In this document: positions 1,704 to 61,412 of the stretch, in pieces | Layout of the letters: each line of letters starts with the position of its first letter | Position numbering within the stretch: the stretch's first letter is position 1 | Assembly: GCA_049647085.1 (NCBI GenBank) | Contig: JBARXA010000006.1 | Location: forward strand, 2,670 to 66,669 | Direction: 5' to 3' | DNA length: 64,000 bases | Source of the DNA: Candidatus Humimicrobiia bacterium | Lineage (GTDB): Bacteria; Actinomycetota; Humimicrobiia; JAHJRV01 | Program-made: the position numbers and the translations under genes | Notes under the pieces: model-generated | Database searches by the model: none | The model's input: the letters and a program-made list of their open reading frames with translations, nothing else | Told to the model about the DNA's origin: nothing

Positions 1704-1919
1704 TGAAAAGTTATTAAAAATTCCCCAGTTAATGGTAAGAAAAAACAATAAACACAAAAATACTTTTAATATAGATATTTAATAGAATATCACCACAAAC
1801 AAAAGACATTATACATTACTATATTTTTTAATTTCCTCAATTTTTAACTATTCTAAGACTTGACATATGCTGAGAAAATTAAATGAAATTAAAGTATCAA
1901 GAAGTAGGAGGAGGTAGAT

Positions 1920-2279
1920 ATGAAGTAAGACAAAAAGATAATTGCAGTTTGTGGACTTAAGTGCAGTGAATGTGAAATTTTTAAAGCAACAGACAATCCT
2001 GAGATAGCACAAAAAATTGCAGATTGGTTTAAAAAAGAAAGAAATAAAGAAGTAAGGATTGAGGACATCCGTTGCTTAGAATGTAAGGGTGATAGGAAGA
2101 AGCACTGGTCTGCGGACTGCTGGATACTTGAATGTTGTGTTGATAAAAAGAGATTGGATTTTTGTAATGAATGTAATGATTTTCCCTGCGATAGGTTAAG
2201 TAAATGGGCTAAAGGAAATAAAAGATACGGCGAAGCTTTAAACAGGCTCATAAAGATTAAGAAAGATGAAAAACAGTAA
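1920..2279 (+). pseudogene. DUF3795-family Cys-rich zinc-binding protein with an in-frame TAA at codon 3 (apparent pseudogene or recoding)
   Basis: Strong RBS AGGAGGAGG 5 nt upstream. Reads ATG AAG TAA GAC AAA AAG ATA ATT GCA GTT TGT GGA... = MK*DKKIIAVCGLKCSECEIF...CLECKG...CNECNDFPCD. The paralog at 17612 reads MKKENKIIAVCGLNCSKCDIF. Confidence 0.6.
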
Positions 2280-2549
2280 AAAACAGAATGTATCCTTTGC
2301 CAAACATGCGTTAGTATATGTGCCAAGGATGCACTGAAATTATCATTTGGATTTGATCTAGGAGATAATGAGTTATTAAGAGAAAGAAGTGATTTAACAT
2401 TTTGGAGGAGAATATAGAAACAACATTGAAAAAACTCCAATAATATTTCTGCATTTAGAAGAAATTGAAAACTTTAAAAAGCTAATTCTTCTAAAATAAG
2501 AATAGTAAAAAGAAAAAATATCATTAAAATTAAGAAAGCGAGGTCCAAA

Positions 2550-13010: not shown

Positions 13011-13101
13011 GGAGGAGTGCAGGAGTGGCCGATCTGGCGATACTGGAAATATCGTAGGCGGTGAAAGTCGCCTCGTGGGTTCGAATCCCACCTCCTCCGC
13101 C
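13011..13101 (+). tRNA. tRNA-Ser (anticodon GGA), class II with long variable arm, encoded CCA
   Basis: Acceptor stem GGAGGAG/CTCCTCC, U8, 3-bp D-stem with GG in the loop, anticodon stem CGATA/TATCG with loop CTGGAAA, variable stem GGCG/CGCC, T-arm GTGGG-TTCGAAT-CCCAC, then G-CCA. Confidence 0.85.
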
Positions 13102-13315
13102 AATTTTAAAATAAAGTGCTTTTCACCAAAATCCCCTCCATGCAATTTATACTTCAAAACTAAAAGAAAAATATTATAGAGTCGATTGTTTTCATGTTCC
13201 TATTTTATGTCTATTTCAATTGACTTTGAATATTTTAAATAATTCTCCAATCTGTTAAAATTAAAAAAGTCTATTTACAAGGTAATTTTCTACATTAATA
13301 TATAGGAGAATTGAT

Positions 13316-13723: not shown

Positions 13724-13905
13724 ACAATAGAAAATTTAATAATTTGCTGAATTCAAAAGAAGCGGAGGAACCATCTTTTTGGGGTGAATCTTGCAAAAGC
13801 AAGTAGGGTTAAAGTCTTTCGATCCAAACCCGTCAGCTAACTCCGTAAGCATTGAGAGATGTTCATCTGGTCACTGATGGTTTCTCCAGTGACTTTATTT
13901 TTTAA
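13724..13905 (+). ncRNA. candidate structured leader or small RNA ending in an intrinsic terminator, immediately 5' of the HEAT-repeat gene
   Basis: GC-richer than the flanks, with local hairpins such as CTTGC-AAAA-GCAAG. It is bounded by the 13686 promoter and the 13870 terminator. No known riboswitch consensus was recognised. Confidence 0.35.
13870..13905 (+). terminator. intrinsic terminator (GTCACTG-ATGGTTTCTC-CAGTGAC then TTTATTTTTT)
   Basis: 7-bp perfect stem plus a T-run, 5 nt before the ATG at 13911. Confidence 0.6.
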
Positions 13906-13910
13906 TAGAT

Positions 13911-14816
13911 ATGAACATGAAGACATTTAATTTATTTGAGCCAAATATAGAAGAAATGATAAAAAGAAAAGATGTTATAGGTTTGATAAAAAGCTTAAAA
14001 CATAAGGATTTTGTCGTACGGAGGCATGCAGTATGGGCTCTTGGAAATATAGGGGATACAAGAGGTGTGGAACCTCTAATTCAAGCTTTAAAAGATGAAC
14101 ATGTCTTTGTTCGAGGAGCAGCAGCATTAGCTCTTGGATTAATGAGAGATGTAAGGATATTAGAACCTCTTATTCAGGCTCTCAAAGATACAAATTTGTA
14201 TGTTAAATCAGCAGCAGCATTGGCTCTTGGGAATATAGGAGAACCAGCAGTAAAACCACTAATTAAGATTCTCAAAGATAAAAACTTACATGTTCAAGCA
14301 GCAGCAACAGAAGCCCTTGGAAGAATAGGGGAGCCTGCAGTAGATTCTCTAATTCAAGCTCTGAAAGATGAACATACCTTTGTTAAAGCAGCAGCAGCAT
14401 TAGCTCTTGGATTAATAAAAGATGTAAAAGCAGTAGAACCATTAATTAATGCCCTTAAAGATAAAGATAAAGATGTACGAATAAGTGTAGTAGAAGCTCT
14501 TGGAAAAATAGGGGATTTAAAAGCAGTAGAACCATTAATTCAGACCCTTAAAGATGAGGATGCGGTTGTTAAGAGATACACAGCAGAAGCTCTTGGAAGG
14601 ATAGAGAATGTAATAGCAATTGAACCTCTAATTCAAGTTCTTAAAGATAAAAATTTGTATGTTCAAGCAGCAGCAACAGCTGCTCTTGGAAAGATAGGAG
14701 AACCGGCAATAGAACCTTTAATTCAAGCTCTAAAAAACAAAGATGAGGATCTTCAGAGGGCAGCTAAAAGGATTTTAATTAGAATTAGAGCAAAGAAATC
14801 TAAGAATGATAGGTAA
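13911..14816 (+). CDS. HEAT-repeat protein (PBS-lyase HEAT-like repeats)
   Basis: About nine tandem 31-aa repeats (EPLIQALKD.. ..VR..AA.ALG.IG). Confidence 0.8.
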   Translation: MNMKTFNLFEPNIEEMIKRKDVIGLIKSLKHKDFVVRRHAVWALGNIGDTRGVEPLIQALKDEHVFVRGAAALALGLMRDVRILEPLIQALKDTNLYVKSAAALALGNIGEPAVKPLIKILKDKNLHVQAAATEALGRIGEPAVDSLIQALKDEHTFVKAAAALALGLIKDVKAVEPLINALKDKDKDVRISVVEALGKIGDLKAVEPLIQTLKDEDAVVKRYTAEALGRIENVIAIEPLIQVLKDKNLYVQAAATAALGKIGEPAIEPLIQALKNKDEDLQRAAKRILIRIRAKKSKNDR

Positions 14817-16144: not shown

Positions 16145-16564
16145 TTATTGTCTTATATAGTAATTTACCTCTTTTACGAAATCTGTGTAAAGCTTTATTG
16201 CTTCTTTGATGCTACTGTAAACAATATCATCCTTTATCTCATCATATTCGTGAACTAATCTATTTCTCAAACCAGCCGAGGGAGCTAATTTTTCTCCCAA
16301 TTGCTTTGATATTAATCCAATTTCAATAGCTTTTATAAATGAGTCATAATAATCAGTTGGTGGATTTTTTCCAATCTCAACAATAACATATGAATTTATA
16401 TCAGTTGCTACTTCTGCAAGTAATAAAATTAATCTTTCAACTGCTCTTTTTTTGATAAAATCTCTTTTGTATTCTTCAAAAGTAATGTTAGAAAAAGTTT
16501 TTAATTCCTGTATATAATTTTTTATTTTTAGTAGCTTGCTTAATACAATATCTTTGTTTATCAA
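16145..16564 (-). CDS. hepT: HepT (DUF86) RNase toxin
   Basis: 139 aa with the Rx4HxY motif in RNRLVHEY. Confidence 0.8.
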   Translation of the reverse strand: MINKDIVLSKLLKIKNYIQELKTFSNITFEEYKRDFIKKRAVERLILLLAEVATDINSYVIVEIGKNPPTDYYDSFIKAIEIGLISKQLGEKLAPSAGLRNRLVHEYDEIKDDIVYSSIKEAIKLYTDFVKEVNYYIRQ

Positions 16565-16630
16565 TTAATCCTCTTTATTTAACATAAGTAAACTGCTCTG
16601 TCTTGTGTAAGACGCTTCCCAGTAAAAAAT

Positions 16631-17287
16631 TCAAATTTTATTTTCCAATAAAAAGTTTTTAATACTTTTTTGATATAAATTACGAAATTTTTTTGTATCC
16701 ATATAGTACTTTAATGACTTTATTTTAAAATTATCCAGTATTTCCTTCTCTCTCTCAAATATTGCCGTTCCTTTAGTGGCTACCTCATATTTGAGTATTG
16801 GATTTGCTCGATTAAGAATTACTAAGTCAATATTATCCATCTTTAATAGTCTAACAAGGTCAGAGGAAATATCTAAAAGTAATTCTGAATATTTGTCTTT
16901 ACCTGTATCAGTTTTAAGAAGAATTCCAATATCCAGATCACTTAAAATTGTTGCATTATCAGTAGAGTAGGAACCAAATATAAAGGACGCAATTACCTCA
17001 GGACTGTTTTTAAAATAAATTCTAATTATTGAAAAAAGCTCAGCTTTCTTTTCTTTAGATATTTTTTTAATTTTTTCTACCGTGATTGTTTCTTTAGCTT
17101 CTGAATAAATGAGACCTTTTTTTTGTTCAACTGCCATATCTTTATCTCTTCTACCCATGTATTCTCTTAATGACTCTCTGATTAACTCACTTCTTTTTCT
17201 ATGTTCTTTTTTTGAGAATTCGTCAACCCTTGATAGAAAATCTTTTGGGATGGTTATATTAATTCTCTTAGCCATATTTATCACCAA
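16631..17287 (-). CDS. MNT (minimal nucleotidyltransferase) antitoxin with an N-terminal RHH DNA-binding domain
   Basis: N-terminus MAKRINITIPKDFLSRVDEF...SELIRESLREYM (RHH). GS-x10-DLD NTase motif (GSYSTDNATILSDLDIG). Immediately upstream of hepT. Confidence 0.75.
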   Translation of the reverse strand: MVINMAKRINITIPKDFLSRVDEFSKKEHRKRSELIRESLREYMGRRDKDMAVEQKKGLIYSEAKETITVEKIKKISKEKKAELFSIIRIYFKNSPEVIASFIFGSYSTDNATILSDLDIGILLKTDTGKDKYSELLLDISSDLVRLLKMDNIDLVILNRANPILKYEVATKGTAIFEREKEILDNFKIKSLKYYMDTKKFRNLYQKSIKNFLLENKI

Positions 17288-17611: not shown

Positions 17612-17770
17612 ATGAAAAAAGAAAACAAGATAATTGCAGTTTGTGGTTTAAACTGTAGCAAATGTGACATTTTTGAAGCAACAAATAATTCAAAGGTAGC
17701 ACAGCAAATTTCAGATTGGTTTAAAGAAGAAAAAGATACACTAAAGCTTTGGAGCAACTTAGCAAGATGA
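17612..17770 (+). CDS. DUF3795-family fragment (52 aa), truncated paralog of 1920-2279
   Basis: GGGAG RBS. MKKENKIIAVCGLNCSKCDIFEATNN... then stops after the first CxxC pair. Confidence 0.45.
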   Translation: MKKENKIIAVCGLNCSKCDIFEATNNSKVAQQISDWFKEEKDTLKLWSNLAR

Positions 17771-17814: not shown

Positions 17815-18174
17815 ATGTTAGACATGAACAGAATGATAGAAATCATAAAAAAAAATCAAGATTTTAAAAAAGTAGGAATGATTCTTTGTCATAACGGAGT
17901 AGTTAGAGGATATTCCAAGGACGGAAAAAAAGTAAAAGGATTAAAAGTAAAATTAGATAAGGTTAAACTAAAAGATTTAATTAATAGAATTAAAAAGAAA
18001 CCAGGAATAATTGATGTCTTAGTAAATATAAGAGAGGGAGAACTATCAATTGGAGAAGATATCATGTATGTAGTAATTGCAGGTGATATCAGAGAGAATG
18101 TTTTCCCAGCTCTTGAAGAAGCAGTAAACAGTATAAAAAGTTATGTAATAAAAAAAGAAGAAGAAATCTTCTAA
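17815..18174 (+). CDS. MoaE-like (molybdopterin synthase large-subunit family) protein
   Basis: GMILCHNGVVRG ... VLVNIREGELSIGEDIMYVVIAGDIRENVF ... IKKEE parallels MoaE VTFTGKVR ... VIHRIGEL.PGDEIVFVGVTSAHR ... FWKRE. Confidence 0.45.
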   Translation: MLDMNRMIEIIKKNQDFKKVGMILCHNGVVRGYSKDGKKVKGLKVKLDKVKLKDLINRIKKKPGIIDVLVNIREGELSIGEDIMYVVIAGDIRENVFPALEEAVNSIKSYVIKKEEEIF

Positions 18175-18289
18175 TATTAGTATAAATAAAAGAGGATTAA
18201 ACTAAAATGAACATTCGAAAAATCCTTTTTTAAATAAATGAAATAATATATATTTTTAATAGAAATATTAAATTTTGAGGAAAGATTCA

Positions 18290-19420
18290 ATGTAATATAG
18301 AAAATTAGGAAACACAGGTTTGGATGTTAGTGTAATAGGATTGGGAGCAGAATATCTGTTTTACCAAGATAAAAATACAGTTGTATCTGTAATAAATAAA
18401 GCTATTGATAATGGCATCAACTATATTGATATAGTTTTTAATATTACAAATTTCCTTGATAATATATCTGCTGGAATCAAGGGTAAAAGAGAGAAGATAA
18501 TCCTAACCGGACATTTAGGTTCTGGTGAAAAGAATGGAAAATATTACAAGACTTATAAGGTTAAGCAATGTGAAGAAATATTTAATAAACTGCTTTCTAA
18601 ATTAAACATTGATTATATTGATATAGTCAATTTACATAATGTAAGAAATGAAAATCAGTATAAGAAAGTAATATCCTCAGGTGGTTTATTAGATTTTGCT
18701 CTTCAGTTGAAAGAAGAAGGTTTAGCACGTTTCATTAGTATTAGTACACACGATATTTCAGTCGCAAAAAAGGTAGCAAGAAGTGGAAAAATAGATGTGA
18801 TAATGATTCAGGTAAATTTAGCAAACAATGCAATGGTGGGAAGAAATGAGATGTTAGCTACGTGTGCAAGGAAGGCAATTGGTCTTGTTGCTATGAAGGT
18901 TTTTGCTGGAGGAAAGTTGCTTCAGAGAAATAGAACAGTTAATATTGCTGCCTGGCGAACAGGGGGAATGAGACTTAAGAAAAAGATTTCTCCATCTATA
19001 ACTCCTATTAAATGTATAAGTTATACCCTTTCACAAGTAGGTGTTTGTACAGTTGTACCAGGGGTTAAAAACGTTGATGAGCTAAATGATGCTATTGATT
19101 ATTTAAATGCAACTGATGAAGAAAAAGATTTTTCTGAACTGTTAACTGATTTTAATGAATATATTACAGGAGAATGTGTTTATTGCAATCATTGTCTTCC
19201 ATGCCCATCAGATATAGATATAGGTCAAATGATACGATTATTTGAAGTTGCTAAACAAGAGTTAACTAAAGAAATTCAGAATGAATATAACAAGCTTCCA
19301 GCAAAAGCATCAGATTGTAATGAATGCGGAGTGTGTATAGAAAGATGTCCATTTGAAGTGGATGTCATTTCAAAAATGAAACAAATTAGAAAACTATTTG
19401 AATTAAATAATCAGATATAA
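18290..19420 (+). CDS. aldo/keto reductase fused to a C-terminal 2x[4Fe-4S] ferredoxin domain; ATG at 18290 is followed by an in-frame TAA (alternative TTG start at 18320)
   Basis: GAGGAAAG RBS then ATG TAA TAT AGA AAA TTA GGA AAC ACA GGT TTG = M*YRKLGNTGLDVSVIGLG, the canonical AKR N-terminus. CVYCNHCLPCP and CNECGVCIERCP cluster motifs. Confidence 0.8.
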
Positions 19421-19530
19421 GTCGGTATATTATAATAGGGGATTGCCACGCCACCTTCAGTGGCTCGCAATGACAAACAGGAGCTGTTCAGAATGTCAAG
19501 AATTAAATAATCAGATATAAGTCAGTATAA
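19399..19530 (+). repeat. 30-bp direct duplication (GAATTAAATAATCAGATATAAGTC[G/A]GTATA) flanking an inserted family-1 repeat at 19442-19476
   Basis: Copy 1 at 19399-19430 is the last codons and stop of the AKR gene. Copy 2 is at 19499-19530. There is one mismatch. Confidence 0.7.
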
Positions 19531-20635: not shown

Positions 20636-20992
20636 ATGAAGGTAAAACAATTAACAAAATATAACATTATTGACCTTTATAAAATCTGTTGTCCTTATGA
20701 AGAACCTTATTTGGGTGCTATGAAGGAGAGTGCAGAACATTTTGTTAATAAAATGAATAAAAGATGGAAAGGTTTTGTAGCATATAAAGATGATGAAGTA
20801 GTAGGTAGAGCAGAAATTGCTCCAATAGAAGAATGTTTAGTTGCCATTGAAGGCGAAGATGTATATTTTCTTTATTGTCTTTGGGTTAAAAAGGAAGCTA
20901 AAGGTAAGGGTTATGGCAGAAAACTAATGGAGAAGATAGTTGAAGTATCTAAAAATAAAAATGGACTTGCAACTATTATGGTAGAAGGATGA
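20636..20992 (+). CDS. GNAT N-acetyltransferase, N-terminal two-thirds (ends at in-frame TGA)
   Basis: Motif A KGKGYGRKLMEK. The ORF stops ...ATIMVEG*. Confidence 0.6.
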   Translation: MKVKQLTKYNIIDLYKICCPYEEPYLGAMKESAEHFVNKMNKRWKGFVAYKDDEVVGRAEIAPIEECLVAIEGEDVYFLYCLWVKKEAKGKGYGRKLMEKIVEVSKNKNGLATIMVEG

Positions 20993-21397
20993 ATGCCAAG
21001 GAAATTTTTTGAACATTTTGGTTTTGAATTAGTGCAATCAAAAGGAATATCAGATTTGATGTTAAAAAGATTCGATCCTAAAGCTGAAGTAGAATTTAAA
21101 GATGTTAAATTTAATCCAAAAATAATTGATAATAAGGTTAATGTAACTGTGGTTCATTCAAAAAGATGTCCATTTATGACTATAAGCTACAATAAAGCTA
21201 TAGAGGTTGCAAAGAATATATCTGATAGGGTTATAATTACAGAACACATTTTAAAAACGCAGGAAGATATTTTGCGTTATGGTGATGAAAATTTTTATGT
21301 TGATGATGAAGCACCATTTATAGGACCAATAAAGATAGAAAAATTAAAGGATATAATTAAAGAAAAATTAAAAGAGAAATTTAAAAATATAAAATAA
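20993..21397 (+). CDS. continuation ORF carrying the GNAT C-terminal motif (MPRKFFEHFGFEL) plus a 120-aa extension; same frame as 20636-20992
   Basis: ATG directly abuts TGA (GGA TGA ATG). FFEHFGFEL matches the GNAT beta6/alpha4 motif FYEKLGF. Confidence 0.5.
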   Translation: MPRKFFEHFGFELVQSKGISDLMLKRFDPKAEVEFKDVKFNPKIIDNKVNVTVVHSKRCPFMTISYNKAIEVAKNISDRVIITEHILKTQEDILRYGDENFYVDDEAPFIGPIKIEKLKDIIKEKLKEKFKNIK

Positions 21398-22024
21398 ATT
21401 AAAAAAGAAATATAGAGGAAAGTTTAAGAATGCTTTTTCACGCTGGTAGTGATAAAGACGATACCAGCCAAAAAAGCTATTGTTTTCATTAATGTCTTTT
21501 ATCCTTGGGATCCTAAAATTAAAAATATAATATAGAATATCAGGCTTAATGTTTATGATAGTCAATACAAAATTTACTATAAAAAGTTTATAAATGCTAT
21601 TCTGATTAGACTATTTAATATTATTTATAAATTGATTGGAAGAAAAATGAAAAGGAAAAAATTATATTATTTATTTTAAATTTTGGACTCTTTTATAGAG
21701 GGATCTTTAATGTAGATATTGGGAAATAATGGACAAAAAATGATATACAAAATAATTGATATAACCAAGAAAAAAGAATATGAAAAATATCTTTACTAAT
21801 GTGGTTACCTATTAAAAAAAATGCAGGAATGCCTATTTGGGATACTGAGGTGTTATTGCAAGGAGTAGATTTTTGCTTAGCACATCCCCTTTATCATCCT
21901 CAAAGTATTAAATTTGATCGTATCTTTGAAAAGATATGAAATTGAAATTCCTACAAGTTTGGCCATCAGGTTTGACCAATCCTTCTTTAGTGTTTGAGAA
22001 ACTTAGGATTCAAGGAGATTAAAT

Positions 22025-22249
22025 ATGGGCATCAATATTTTTCCAATTCGTCTGTGGGTTGACCATTGCTATATAATCCAGGACAAAGGGGTGATTATGA
22101 TTGATTGTGGGTCACCCAAGAAAGCAAAAGCCTTTAAAAAAGCCATTGAAAGAATCCATATTAAACCTGATGAAATTCAGCTAATCGTTATAACACATGG
22201 GCATATGGATCATATAAGATCAGCTAATGACATCAAAGGGTTGACGTAG
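22025..22249 (+). pseudogene. MBL-fold metallo-hydrolase, truncated after 74 codons at a repeat boundary
   Basis: HGHMDH (HxHxDH) motif then stop. The TAG stop is the first bases of the family-2 repeat GTAGAAATAATTGACC. Confidence 0.55.
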
Positions 22250-30873: not shown

Positions 30874-31276
30874 AAAATTATGGAATTAGAGTTCAATATA
30901 GTCTGTTTGAATGTAAATTAAAACTTGATGACCTATTAAAATTAAAATTCTATTTAAAGAATTTAATAAATAAAGAAGAAGACAGAATCCATTTTTACAG
31001 ATTATGTCCAGGATGTTATGGTAAAATTGAGAAGATTGGAACTGACAAACCAATTATAGATAAAGAAACAATAGTGATATAAATAATTCGAGCATTAATG
31101 GTGTGCAAAATTACTGAGAGATGATAGCAAAATTTAAAAAACCTGCAAAAATATATTTTGATATTCTAAAAATGAAAAATTTTAAATCATAAAATATTAA
31201 ATTTAATATAATATTAGAAGACACTCGATTTTTAGGTATAAATGACCTGATAATTAATACAAAAAAGTATGCAGAA

Positions 31277-31314
31277 GTAGAAATAATTGACCTGAAGAAA
31301 AAGGGATTAAAAAG
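31277..31314 (+). repeat. family-2 unit (GTAGAAATAATTGACCTGAAGAAAAAGGGATTAAAAAG)
   Basis: Immediately precedes the GC-rich pfkA leader. Confidence 0.65.
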
Positions 31315-31572: not shown

Positions 31573-32538
31573 ATGAAGCGTATTGGGGTGTTGACCAGTG
31601 GCGGAGATAGCCCTGGGATGAACGCTTGTATAAGGGTGGTAGTGAGGACAGGTATTAGTCTTGAACTGAAGGTCATAGGCATTAAACGTGGCTATACTGG
31701 ACTAATAGATGGGGAGATAGAGCAAATGGGTGCACGCTCCGTGGGCGGCATAATCCAAAGAGCGGGCACCATCTTACAAACAGCGAGATGTGAGGAATTT
31801 AAAACAATACATGGGAGATGCAAGGCGCTGCGAAAGCTAAACGAGTACGGCATCGAGGGATTGGTGGTAATTGGTGGTTGTGGCTCCCTGAAGGGTGCTT
31901 TGGAGCTTCACAAGATGGGCTTTCCTGTAGTTGGCGTGCCAGCCAGCATTGACAACGACATCTGTGGAACCGACATGTCCATCGGCACTGACACAGCCCT
32001 CAACACTGCGCTTGATGCTATTGACAAAATAAAAGAGACCGGCTCCTCGCACGGACGGGCTTTCCTAGTAGAAGTGATGGGGCGGAATTGTGGATATCTT
32101 GCTTTGATGGCTGCGATAGCCGGTGGGGCCGAGGTCGTCCTTATCCCAGAGAAAGAGATTGCTCTGGAGGAGGTTGCTGAGATCTTAGAACAAGCTTACA
32201 TCAAGGGTAAAGCCCACGCTCTCGTCGTCATAGCAGAGGGAGCTAAGTGTAAAACCTCGGAGGTAGTTGCTTACCTTCAGAAAGAGGAGATAGGCTTTGA
32301 GGTGCGCACCACCATACTTGGTCATGTCCAAAGGGGAGGGTCACCGAGTGCATTCGACAGGCTCCTAGCAACACGCTTAGGCGCATCAGCTGTACAGAAG
32401 CTTGCTAAGGGGGTCAGAGGTATGATGGTTGGGTTGATAGGTAACAAAATAAAGACCACAAGCTTGGAGCAGGTAACTGAGCGACGCAAGGAGTTGGACA
32501 TAACCTTATATGATATGGCTGAGGTACTGGCAAAGTAA
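31573..32538 (+). CDS. pfkA: ATP-dependent 6-phosphofructokinase
   Basis: GGDSPGMNA, GGCGSLKGA and MGR motifs. First 100 nt is 50% GC versus about 30% background. Confidence 0.9.
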   Translation: MKRIGVLTSGGDSPGMNACIRVVVRTGISLELKVIGIKRGYTGLIDGEIEQMGARSVGGIIQRAGTILQTARCEEFKTIHGRCKALRKLNEYGIEGLVVIGGCGSLKGALELHKMGFPVVGVPASIDNDICGTDMSIGTDTALNTALDAIDKIKETGSSHGRAFLVEVMGRNCGYLALMAAIAGGAEVVLIPEKEIALEEVAEILEQAYIKGKAHALVVIAEGAKCKTSEVVAYLQKEEIGFEVRTTILGHVQRGGSPSAFDRLLATRLGASAVQKLAKGVRGMMVGLIGNKIKTTSLEQVTERRKELDITLYDMAEVLAK

Positions 32539-32598
32539 AGGAGAGTATCAAGATTACATCCATACCCATGTCATCCTTTTCATGGTCTATCCTCCTTT

Positions 32599-32816
32599 CA
32601 TAGAAATAATTGACCTGAATAAAAAGGGATTTAGAATCACCCTCCCCCTACCCCCTCCCATCAAGGGAGGGGAAGTAGAAATAATTAACCTTAGTAAAAG
32701 ATTCCTCTCCACTTCATCTCTGATTTTTGAGGATGATATTTTTATAAAGATAAGATGCCTATTTATCTTGAAATCTTTACAATAAAAATATAATATTAAA
32801 AAATCAGAAAAAGATT
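32599..32816 (+). repeat. composite: family-2 unit (32599-32636) + perfect G-rich hairpin CCCCTCCC-ATCAA-GGGAGGGG (32641-32675) + degenerate family-2 unit (32675-32705) + ATTAAAAAATCAGAAAAAGATT tail (32795-32816)
   Basis: Two family-2 units separated by about 40 bp, mimicking a repeat-spacer-repeat arrangement. Confidence 0.65.
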
Positions 32817-61039: not shown

Positions 61040-61412
61040 TTATATTAATAATCTTACAGCATCGGTAATAAATTTAATGCTGAAAAATAATAGAAACAAA
61101 CCACATATTGTAAAAATAATCTTTTGGAATCTTCTTCCAAAGAATTTTCCACCCCTAAATGAAAGAAATAATCCTCCAATAATACCAATTAATGCTTTTA
61201 TATAAATTAGATTTAATAAATATCCAAAGCCATAGAATAAAGCTATCATAAGCGGAAACTCTACTACTCCGTGACCTATAGCAATTAATGCCCCAGCATG
61301 AGGAGATTCATTACCTTTTCCTATTGATAGATACAGCTGTGATGGGACCAGGTGCCATAACACCAGACAAAGAAATGAGTACTGCCTCAAAAATAAATGT
61401 TAAAAGATTCAT
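61040..61412 (-). pseudogene. degraded LysE-family paralog (frameshift plus internal deletion)
   Basis: ATG at 61412 gives MNLLTFIFEAVLISLSGVMAPGPITAVSINRKR*. A 116-aa ORF in another frame continues LSIGKGNESPHAGALIAIGHG.... Compared with 1083-1703 about 85 aa are missing between GGLFL and SFRGG. Confidence 0.55.

Follow-up and report, generated by a model that had tools for sequence, protein, structure and literature searches.

In a genome of Candidatus Humimicrobiia, a class of Actinomycetota, a small gene for a cysteine-rich DUF3795 protein is best explained as a young loss-of-function or near-null allele, to which we assign a probability of roughly three in four: a single CAA to TAA change at codon 3 appears to have left the gene silent or nearly so. 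The early stop most likely means that a gene has recently been switched off in the ordinary way, and not that decoding is unusual. The window, i.e., the whole stretch of 64,000 nucleotides analysed here, belongs to a MAG of an uncultured organism with 31% GC, and the sister sequences are labelled as marine sediment metagenome. The stop is genuinely present in the DNA and is derived relative to an intact syntenic ortholog (contig L008, with LysE and flavodoxin genes as flanks), as expected of a null allele. The features considered are listed in Table 1.

Inspection of the sequence placed a Shine-Dalgarno (SD) element, AGGAGGAGG, at positions 1906-1914, followed by the spacer TAGAT (1915-1919), ATG (1920-1922), AAG (1923-1925) and the in-frame TAA (1926-1928) that forms codon 3 of the gene. 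Downstream of this stop, 116 sense codons (1929-2276) continue in the zero frame with the ATG up to a terminator of their own (TAA, 2277-2279). The preliminary description, which had reported an SD located 5 nt upstream of ATG AAG TAA and then a complete in-frame DUF3795 protein, was confirmed in the sequence and by a Pfam match to nearly the whole profile: the post-stop peptide aligned with positions 1-82 of the 83 positions of DUF3795 (PF12675), with an E-value of 1.7e-15 and 57.7 bits (cut-off 22.6). The peptide contains the full domain, and every alignment column with an invariant or nearly invariant Cys, Trp or His is kept; the exceptions in the window are D19, which is replaced by E, and the Gly at position 54, which is present in 17 of 17 homologs and is replaced by Glu. 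Frameshifting by +1 or -1 is irrelevant to this locus, the DUF3795 ORF being in the zero frame with the ATG. When all six frames of the 64-kb window were scanned for long open frames with a start codon and a stop within a few codons upstream, an SD and an ATG followed by no or one sense codon, TAA and a long ORF were found at two sites only, namely at 1920 and at 18290, the start of an aldo/keto reductase (AKR) gene. A consensus scan of positions 1650-2600 for promoters and terminators returned no convincing promoter 5' of the SD and no terminator. (By eye, TTGACA is seen at 1860-1865, with TTGATA in L008; no -10 element meeting the rule of the scan accompanies it.)

Table 1. Features of the window that bear on the early stop and on other decayed genes
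Feature	Position	Strand	Basis
Shine-Dalgarno element AGGAGGAGG	1906..1914	+	5 nt 5' of the ATG; the L008 ortholog has AGGAGGATG at the equivalent place
Ancestral start ATG and AAG (Met-Lys), now a two-codon mini-ORF with stop	1920..1925	+	Aligned with the start Met of 17 of 17 homologs
In-frame TAA, codon 3; CAA (Gln) with C>T at 1926	1926..1928	+	L008 reads ATG AAG CAA GAG; TAA in five further assemblies
Remainder of the otherwise intact DUF3795 gene (116 codons and stop)	1929..2279	+	Pfam, alignment, dN/dS
ATA ATT (codons 7-8), the only near-cognate restart candidates that would spare the whole domain	1938..1943	+	Putative; the Pfam match begins at the ATA-coded Ile
Antisense ORF (183 aa), reported by gene callers instead of the broken DUF3795 gene	1889..2440	-	Called in Logan contigs L001 and L003; no Pfam match
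Truncated DUF3795 paralog (52 aa), ending at TGA 17768-17770	17612..17770	+	Pfam profile positions 1-28 of 83 only
Head of the AKR gene: SD GAGGAAAG, 5 nt, ATG TAA; TAA (18293-18295) from CAA	18277..18295	+	Syntenic orthologs
Remainder of the gene for an aldo/keto reductase with 4Fe-4S domain (374 codons)	18296..19420	+	Pfam PF00248, E-value 1.2e-27
GNAT acetyltransferase gene with mid-gene TGA (20990-20992) from TGG (Trp), codon 119	20636..21397	+	Comparison with the 253-aa gene of L009; Pfam match
Metallo-beta-lactamase fragment	22019-22246		Pfam profile positions 7-64 of 196 only
LysE paralog remnant with frameshift and internal deletion	61049-61412	-	Decayed copy of the LysE exporter gene 1083-1703

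A search of 5.8 billion proteins yielded 50 homologs of the DUF3795 protein, and the 17 full-length ones were aligned. All 17 begin with M-x5-(I/M/L)I(A/G)(V/A)CGL in the register set by the ATG of the window, as does the truncated paralog, and this shared register shows that the reading frame is not a chance ORF. Position 3 is a sense codon in each of the 17. The closest homolog, P0001 (88% at the amino acid level), is encoded on contig L008, which is collinear with positions 1508-2972 of the window (end of LysE, DUF3795, flavodoxin) at 88.5% nucleotide identity, and whose gene starts with AGGAGGATGTAGAC ATG AAG CAA GAG AAT AAG ATA ATC. Because this syntenic ortholog carries CAA, the TAA of the window is the derived state, reached from a Gln codon by one C>T transition. 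The dN/dS of the gene relative to L008 is 0.10. Regarding the paralog at 17612, the Lys at position 3 noted in the preliminary description is correct, but the paralog is not intact, as its length and profile coverage in Table 1 indicate, and the true ortholog has Gln at this position. An intact allele closer than the 88% of L008 was found neither in the protein search nor in scans of genome contigs and metagenome contigs, so that the TAA looks fixed in the sampled lineage; these searches likewise brought up no relative of intermediate divergence with which the TAA might be shared, and the metagenome-contig scan had missed even the near-identical JGI contig that was recovered by way of the flavodoxin gene.

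This adjoining flavodoxin gene (2550-2963) served as the handle for retrieving other assemblies and led to seven other contigs from other samples, five of which reach the start of the DUF3795 gene. ATG AAG TAA is identical in all five (SRR31155650, JGI 3300009529, SRR27456518, SRR27456520 and SRR11049210). The identity to the window was 99.8-100% over the whole length in four of them, whereas the fifth (L001) showed 98.7% over 3 kb, with differences mostly in the upstream peptidase gene. Divergence of the TAA haplotypes from the window does not exceed 0.2% across the DUF3795 gene and its immediate flanks; inside the ORF, two SNPs were observed among these haplotypes, both of them synonymous. 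The companion stops also recur: the TAA of the AKR gene is present in two further assemblies (L015 and L028), and the split form of a GNAT acetyltransferase gene, with its TGA, in another two (JGI 3300024433 and SRR27456520). Assembly errors, which had been put forward as one explanation of the two early stops, are therefore refuted, each stop being found again in assemblies of other samples. For position 1926 in particular, the suspicion of a sequencing or assembly artefact draws on the general experience with consensus errors in MAGs and on nothing else, and the presence of the same T in another five assemblies, produced in several projects and with several assemblers, makes it practically negligible.

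The AKR gene provides a second case of the same kind. Its start in the window (ATG at 18290) reads GAGGAAAG, 5 nt, ATG TAA TAT AGA, whereas the syntenic orthologs on contigs L029, L031, L032, L034 and L035 read ATG CAA TAT AGA (MQYRKLG); the AKR stop accordingly originated in the same way as the DUF3795 stop, by CAA>TAA. These intact orthologs are 93-95% identical and occupy the same position downstream of MoaE. In six closely related contigs (L009-L013 and L016), whose flanks show 96-99% nucleotide identity, the gene is absent, and window positions 18174-19517 (1.3 kb), between MoaE and the next gene, are replaced by approximately 164 nt of unrelated sequence. The locus thus occurs in three states (intact, nonsense, absent), as expected of a dispensable accessory gene. 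For the AKR, the window branch carries 11 synonymous and 8 non-synonymous changes, the stop included; the intact branches fare no better. The deposited model (MGB3345838.1; 366 aa) starts at TTG 18320 and is a truncated rescue, the true start being the ATG at 18290. At the 3' end of the gene, the window has an insertion of approximately 100 nt (19424-19525) that is absent from L029 and L035, two strains with an intact AKR. A direct duplication of 24 nt (GAATTAAATAATCAGATATAAGTC), with the AKR stop codon in it, flanks the insert, and an imperfect palindrome (TTGCCACGCCACCTTCAGTGGCTCGCAA) lies within the insert; a mobile element of small size, or one of REP type, is a possible explanation.

The two early stops are located in a genome that has other decayed genes. 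The GNAT gene is a single 253-aa ORF in L009, a strain of 96-97% identity, and is split into 118 and 134 aa in the window. All three nonsense changes (DUF3795, AKR and GNAT) are GC>AT transitions, the expected mutational route to a stop in a genome of 31% GC. The LysE paralog remnant encodes residues 1-31 and 27-96 in different frames and has lost residues 97-164 by deletion. In related strains, the metallo-beta-lactamase fragment is likewise truncated, at 74 aa, and is therefore an older remnant. The MAG can be described as a pseudogene-rich one from sediment, in whose accessory regions gene remnants and nonsense mutations of the GC>AT type accumulate, which fits weak selection and an AT-biased mutation pattern.

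The suggestion that the two early stops are a pair of very recent nonsense mutations has held up: both are CAA>TAA changes that are derived relative to syntenic orthologs, and the TAA haplotypes are nearly identical. The ORF bodies of DUF3795 and AKR show no sign of relaxed constraint, which counts against a switched-off gene, but the near-identical TAA haplotypes leave this comparison without power. With haplotypes that differ from the window by so little around the genes, no further decay is to be expected yet. The position of the stops within the genes was evaluated under a uniform model restricted to the routes by which a GC>AT transition can create a stop. Codon 3 is one of 11 such routes in DUF3795 and codon 2 is one of 17 in AKR, and the probability that two nonsense events out of three strike the earliest possible site (codons 2-3) is about 0.02, a post hoc value for cases that were picked as conspicuous in the first reading of the sequence. 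A bias of this kind would be expected if the earliest stops are the cheapest form of gene loss, or if early stops are slightly leaky, and could then point to leaky alleles tolerated by selection. The earliest stops are the cheapest in that they yield no truncated protein and waste little translation.

Whether the stop might be decoded rather than obeyed was judged from stop codon usage, context and RNA structure. TAA is the usual terminator in the window, where it ends 42 of 60 long ORFs, eight of them in the context TAAG; UAA followed by G is therefore a normal terminator context here. Throughout the window, no in-frame TAA on the coding strand joins long open segments besides the DUF3795 gene's own terminator at 2277. 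The start regions of DUF3795 and AKR showed no RNA structure beyond that of shuffled sequence (fold z-scores of +1.65 and +0.40); a readthrough-stimulating structure was rejected, these regions being less structured than the shuffled controls. Programmed readthrough would be expected to show a stop conserved among orthologs together with a conserved downstream ORF, and a leaky context or stimulatory structure; neither was found. A reassignment of TAA to Gln would be accompanied by TAA falling out of use as a terminator and by frequent in-frame TAAs, and the opposite was observed, so that code reassignment or global suppression was rejected on stop codon usage and on the scan for in-frame stops joining long ORFs. 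What these data leave to an ochre-suppressing tRNA-Gln(UUA), or to a partial code change in which TAA derived from CAA is still read as Gln as in genetic code 6, is very little. In its favour, both TAAs replace a CAA Gln codon and the TGA of the GNAT gene replaces TGG, which are the codon pairs of known stop codon reassignments (Gln for TAA and Trp for TGA, as in genetic codes 6 and 4); these changes are, however, simply among the GC>AT routes to a stop, so that the pattern is not diagnostic. The sole tRNA of the window, which covers 64 kb, is a tRNA-Ser(GGA) at 13011-13102. The stops also differ from those of readthrough and reassignment systems in being lineage-specific, in a genome with TAA as main terminator and with neither stimulatory context nor RNA structure at these sites. 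A suppressor tRNA and an artefact together account for a few percent.

The reading that deserves more weight, unlikely as it is, is that of a leaky hypomorph, in which re-initiation at ATA (1938) or ATT (1941), 9-12 nt downstream of the stop, or occasional misreading of UAA by tRNA-Gln, tRNA-Lys or tRNA-Tyr, would supply small amounts of a DUF3795 protein of essentially full length, so that the gene would still be seen by selection; for AKR, the restart would take place at TTG 18320. The Pfam domain starts exactly at the ATA, a restart at which would spare every conserved residue, the strong SD and ATG are retained, and the ORF is without decay, a fact for which the youth of the allele accounts equally well. 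ATA and ATT are very weak start codons, as known from non-AUG initiation in E. coli. Here they are located 9 and 12 nt past the stop, with no SD of their own and at least 23 nt away from the SD at 1906-1914. Canonical restart codons (ATG, GTG, TTG) are missing for 75 codons after the DUF3795 stop, the first one being TTG at 2154, and no compensating start codon has evolved in the lineage. In AKR, an SD-like AGGA lies approximately 10 nt upstream of TTG 18320. The mild enrichment of nonsense hits at codons 2-3 is in line with leakiness, as is the low-level translation suggested for 101 of 161 pseudogenes by proteogenomics in Salmonella (PMC9122581); readthrough in that study, however, concerned mainly UAG with a neighbouring C and not UAA. 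Readthrough and re-initiation, which had been proposed as alternatives to mutation or error, thus gained no positive support, and the sign of recoding that the preliminary description had itself named, the same TAA in relatives with a conserved ORF behind it, is absent from the nearest relatives (L008 and the AKR orthologs carry CAA). A bolder version, which we regard as decidedly improbable, is that CAA>TAA changes that hit one of the first three codons serve as 'dimmer' alleles, tolerated or even favoured in an energy-limited subsurface actinobacterium. If so, the SD and ATG would keep loading ribosomes, restart at near-cognate codons (ATA or ATT; TTG in AKR) would yield a trickle of protein, and a single T>C change would reverse the state. 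Such alleles would account for the location of two of the window's three nonsense mutations at codons 2-3 as well as for the lack of decay in the ORFs.

For the switched-off gene, the following course of events is proposed. First, by one C>T change, the third codon of a normal DUF3795 gene went from CAA (Gln) to the ochre stop TAA. With SD and ATG still intact, ribosomes would continue to load, make fMet-Lys and terminate at UAA-G, and the 116-codon body of the gene would be left essentially untranslated. The TAA would then have spread through the sampled population of a species-level marine-sediment lineage, the mutation probably being too young for further decay to be visible. The codon-2 stop of AKR and the TGG>TGA change of GNAT would be independent events of the same kind in a genome that already has older gene remnants.

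Several known systems resemble this arrangement in part. Like the pseudogenes of Salmonella Typhi and Paratyphi A (PMC9122581), the DUF3795 gene has an in-frame stop derived by transition in an otherwise intact accessory gene, with intact orthologs in close relatives and with its expression signals kept. Unlike in these pseudogenes, the stop is at codon 3 (codon 2 in AKR), so that essentially no truncated protein is expected, and the organism is an uncultured actinobacterium of low GC content from sediment. Start-stops and minimal ORFs were found in E. coli by retapamulin ribosome profiling, and start-stops bind ribosomes (Meydan et al., bioRxiv 10.1101/520783). The sites described here share with them an SD-like sequence, a start and an immediate stop (ATG TAA in AKR, ATG AAG TAA in DUF3795) and, by analogy, should bind and release ribosomes without a useful product. 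The tested E. coli sites in yecJ and hslR, in contrast, are located out of frame inside genes and modulate the host ORF (bioRxiv 10.1101/520783), whereas the element in the window used to be the gene's own start, lies in the reading frame, and lacks conservation among the nearest relatives. The architecture of a regulatory start-stop ORF is thus present in AKR and DUF3795 and absent from their closest relatives, which does not agree with a regulatory role. The papers cited on pseudogenes and start-stops do not make the present case special. Restarts after early amber codons in lacI are a classic example of re-initiation, which takes place there at AUG, GUG or UUG. The early stop near the authentic start, and the possibility of downstream re-initiation giving an N-terminally shortened protein, are common to both cases; unlike lacI, the DUF3795 gene offers only ATA and ATT within 75 codons of its stop.

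The main consequences concern annotation, and anything new about translation would follow only if the early stops prove leaky. The appropriate label for the DUF3795 gene (1920-2279) is that of a pseudogene interrupted by an internal stop. The antisense ORF called at the DUF3795 locus instead is probably spurious and an annotation artefact. Some Logan gene calls on AT-rich contigs also pass through stop codons (one of 67 aa that crosses TGA 17768, and a 236-aa MNT), which looks like gene-caller behaviour, possibly the use of an alternative genetic code, and not like biology.

Positions 2280-2414, which follow the DUF3795 stop immediately and in frame with it, form an open stretch of 45 codons with a CxxCxxCxxxC motif (ECILCQTCVSICAKDA), which may be the remnant of a ferredoxin-like gene. 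Its interpretation as a C-terminal extension of the DUF3795 protein was rejected, as 4Fe-4S Pfam matches were weak and below the cut-off and none of the homologs has such an extension. Elsewhere in the window, a c-di-AMP riboswitch (Rfam RF00379, 104 bits) was found at 13735-13865, upstream of the ORF 13911-14816, in keeping with a bacterial origin, and a toxin-antitoxin pair consisting of a HepT-like RNase and an MNT/Polbeta nucleotidyltransferase is encoded on the reverse strand at 16145-17287. A repeat of 28-36 nt (TAGAAATAATTGACCTGAAGAAAAAGGGATT...) is present in three copies (31274-31313, 32597-32636 and 32672-32699) that flank the ORF 31573-32538, two of them 75 nt apart; a degenerate CRISPR-like array, transposon ends and regulatory repeats are the candidates for its nature.
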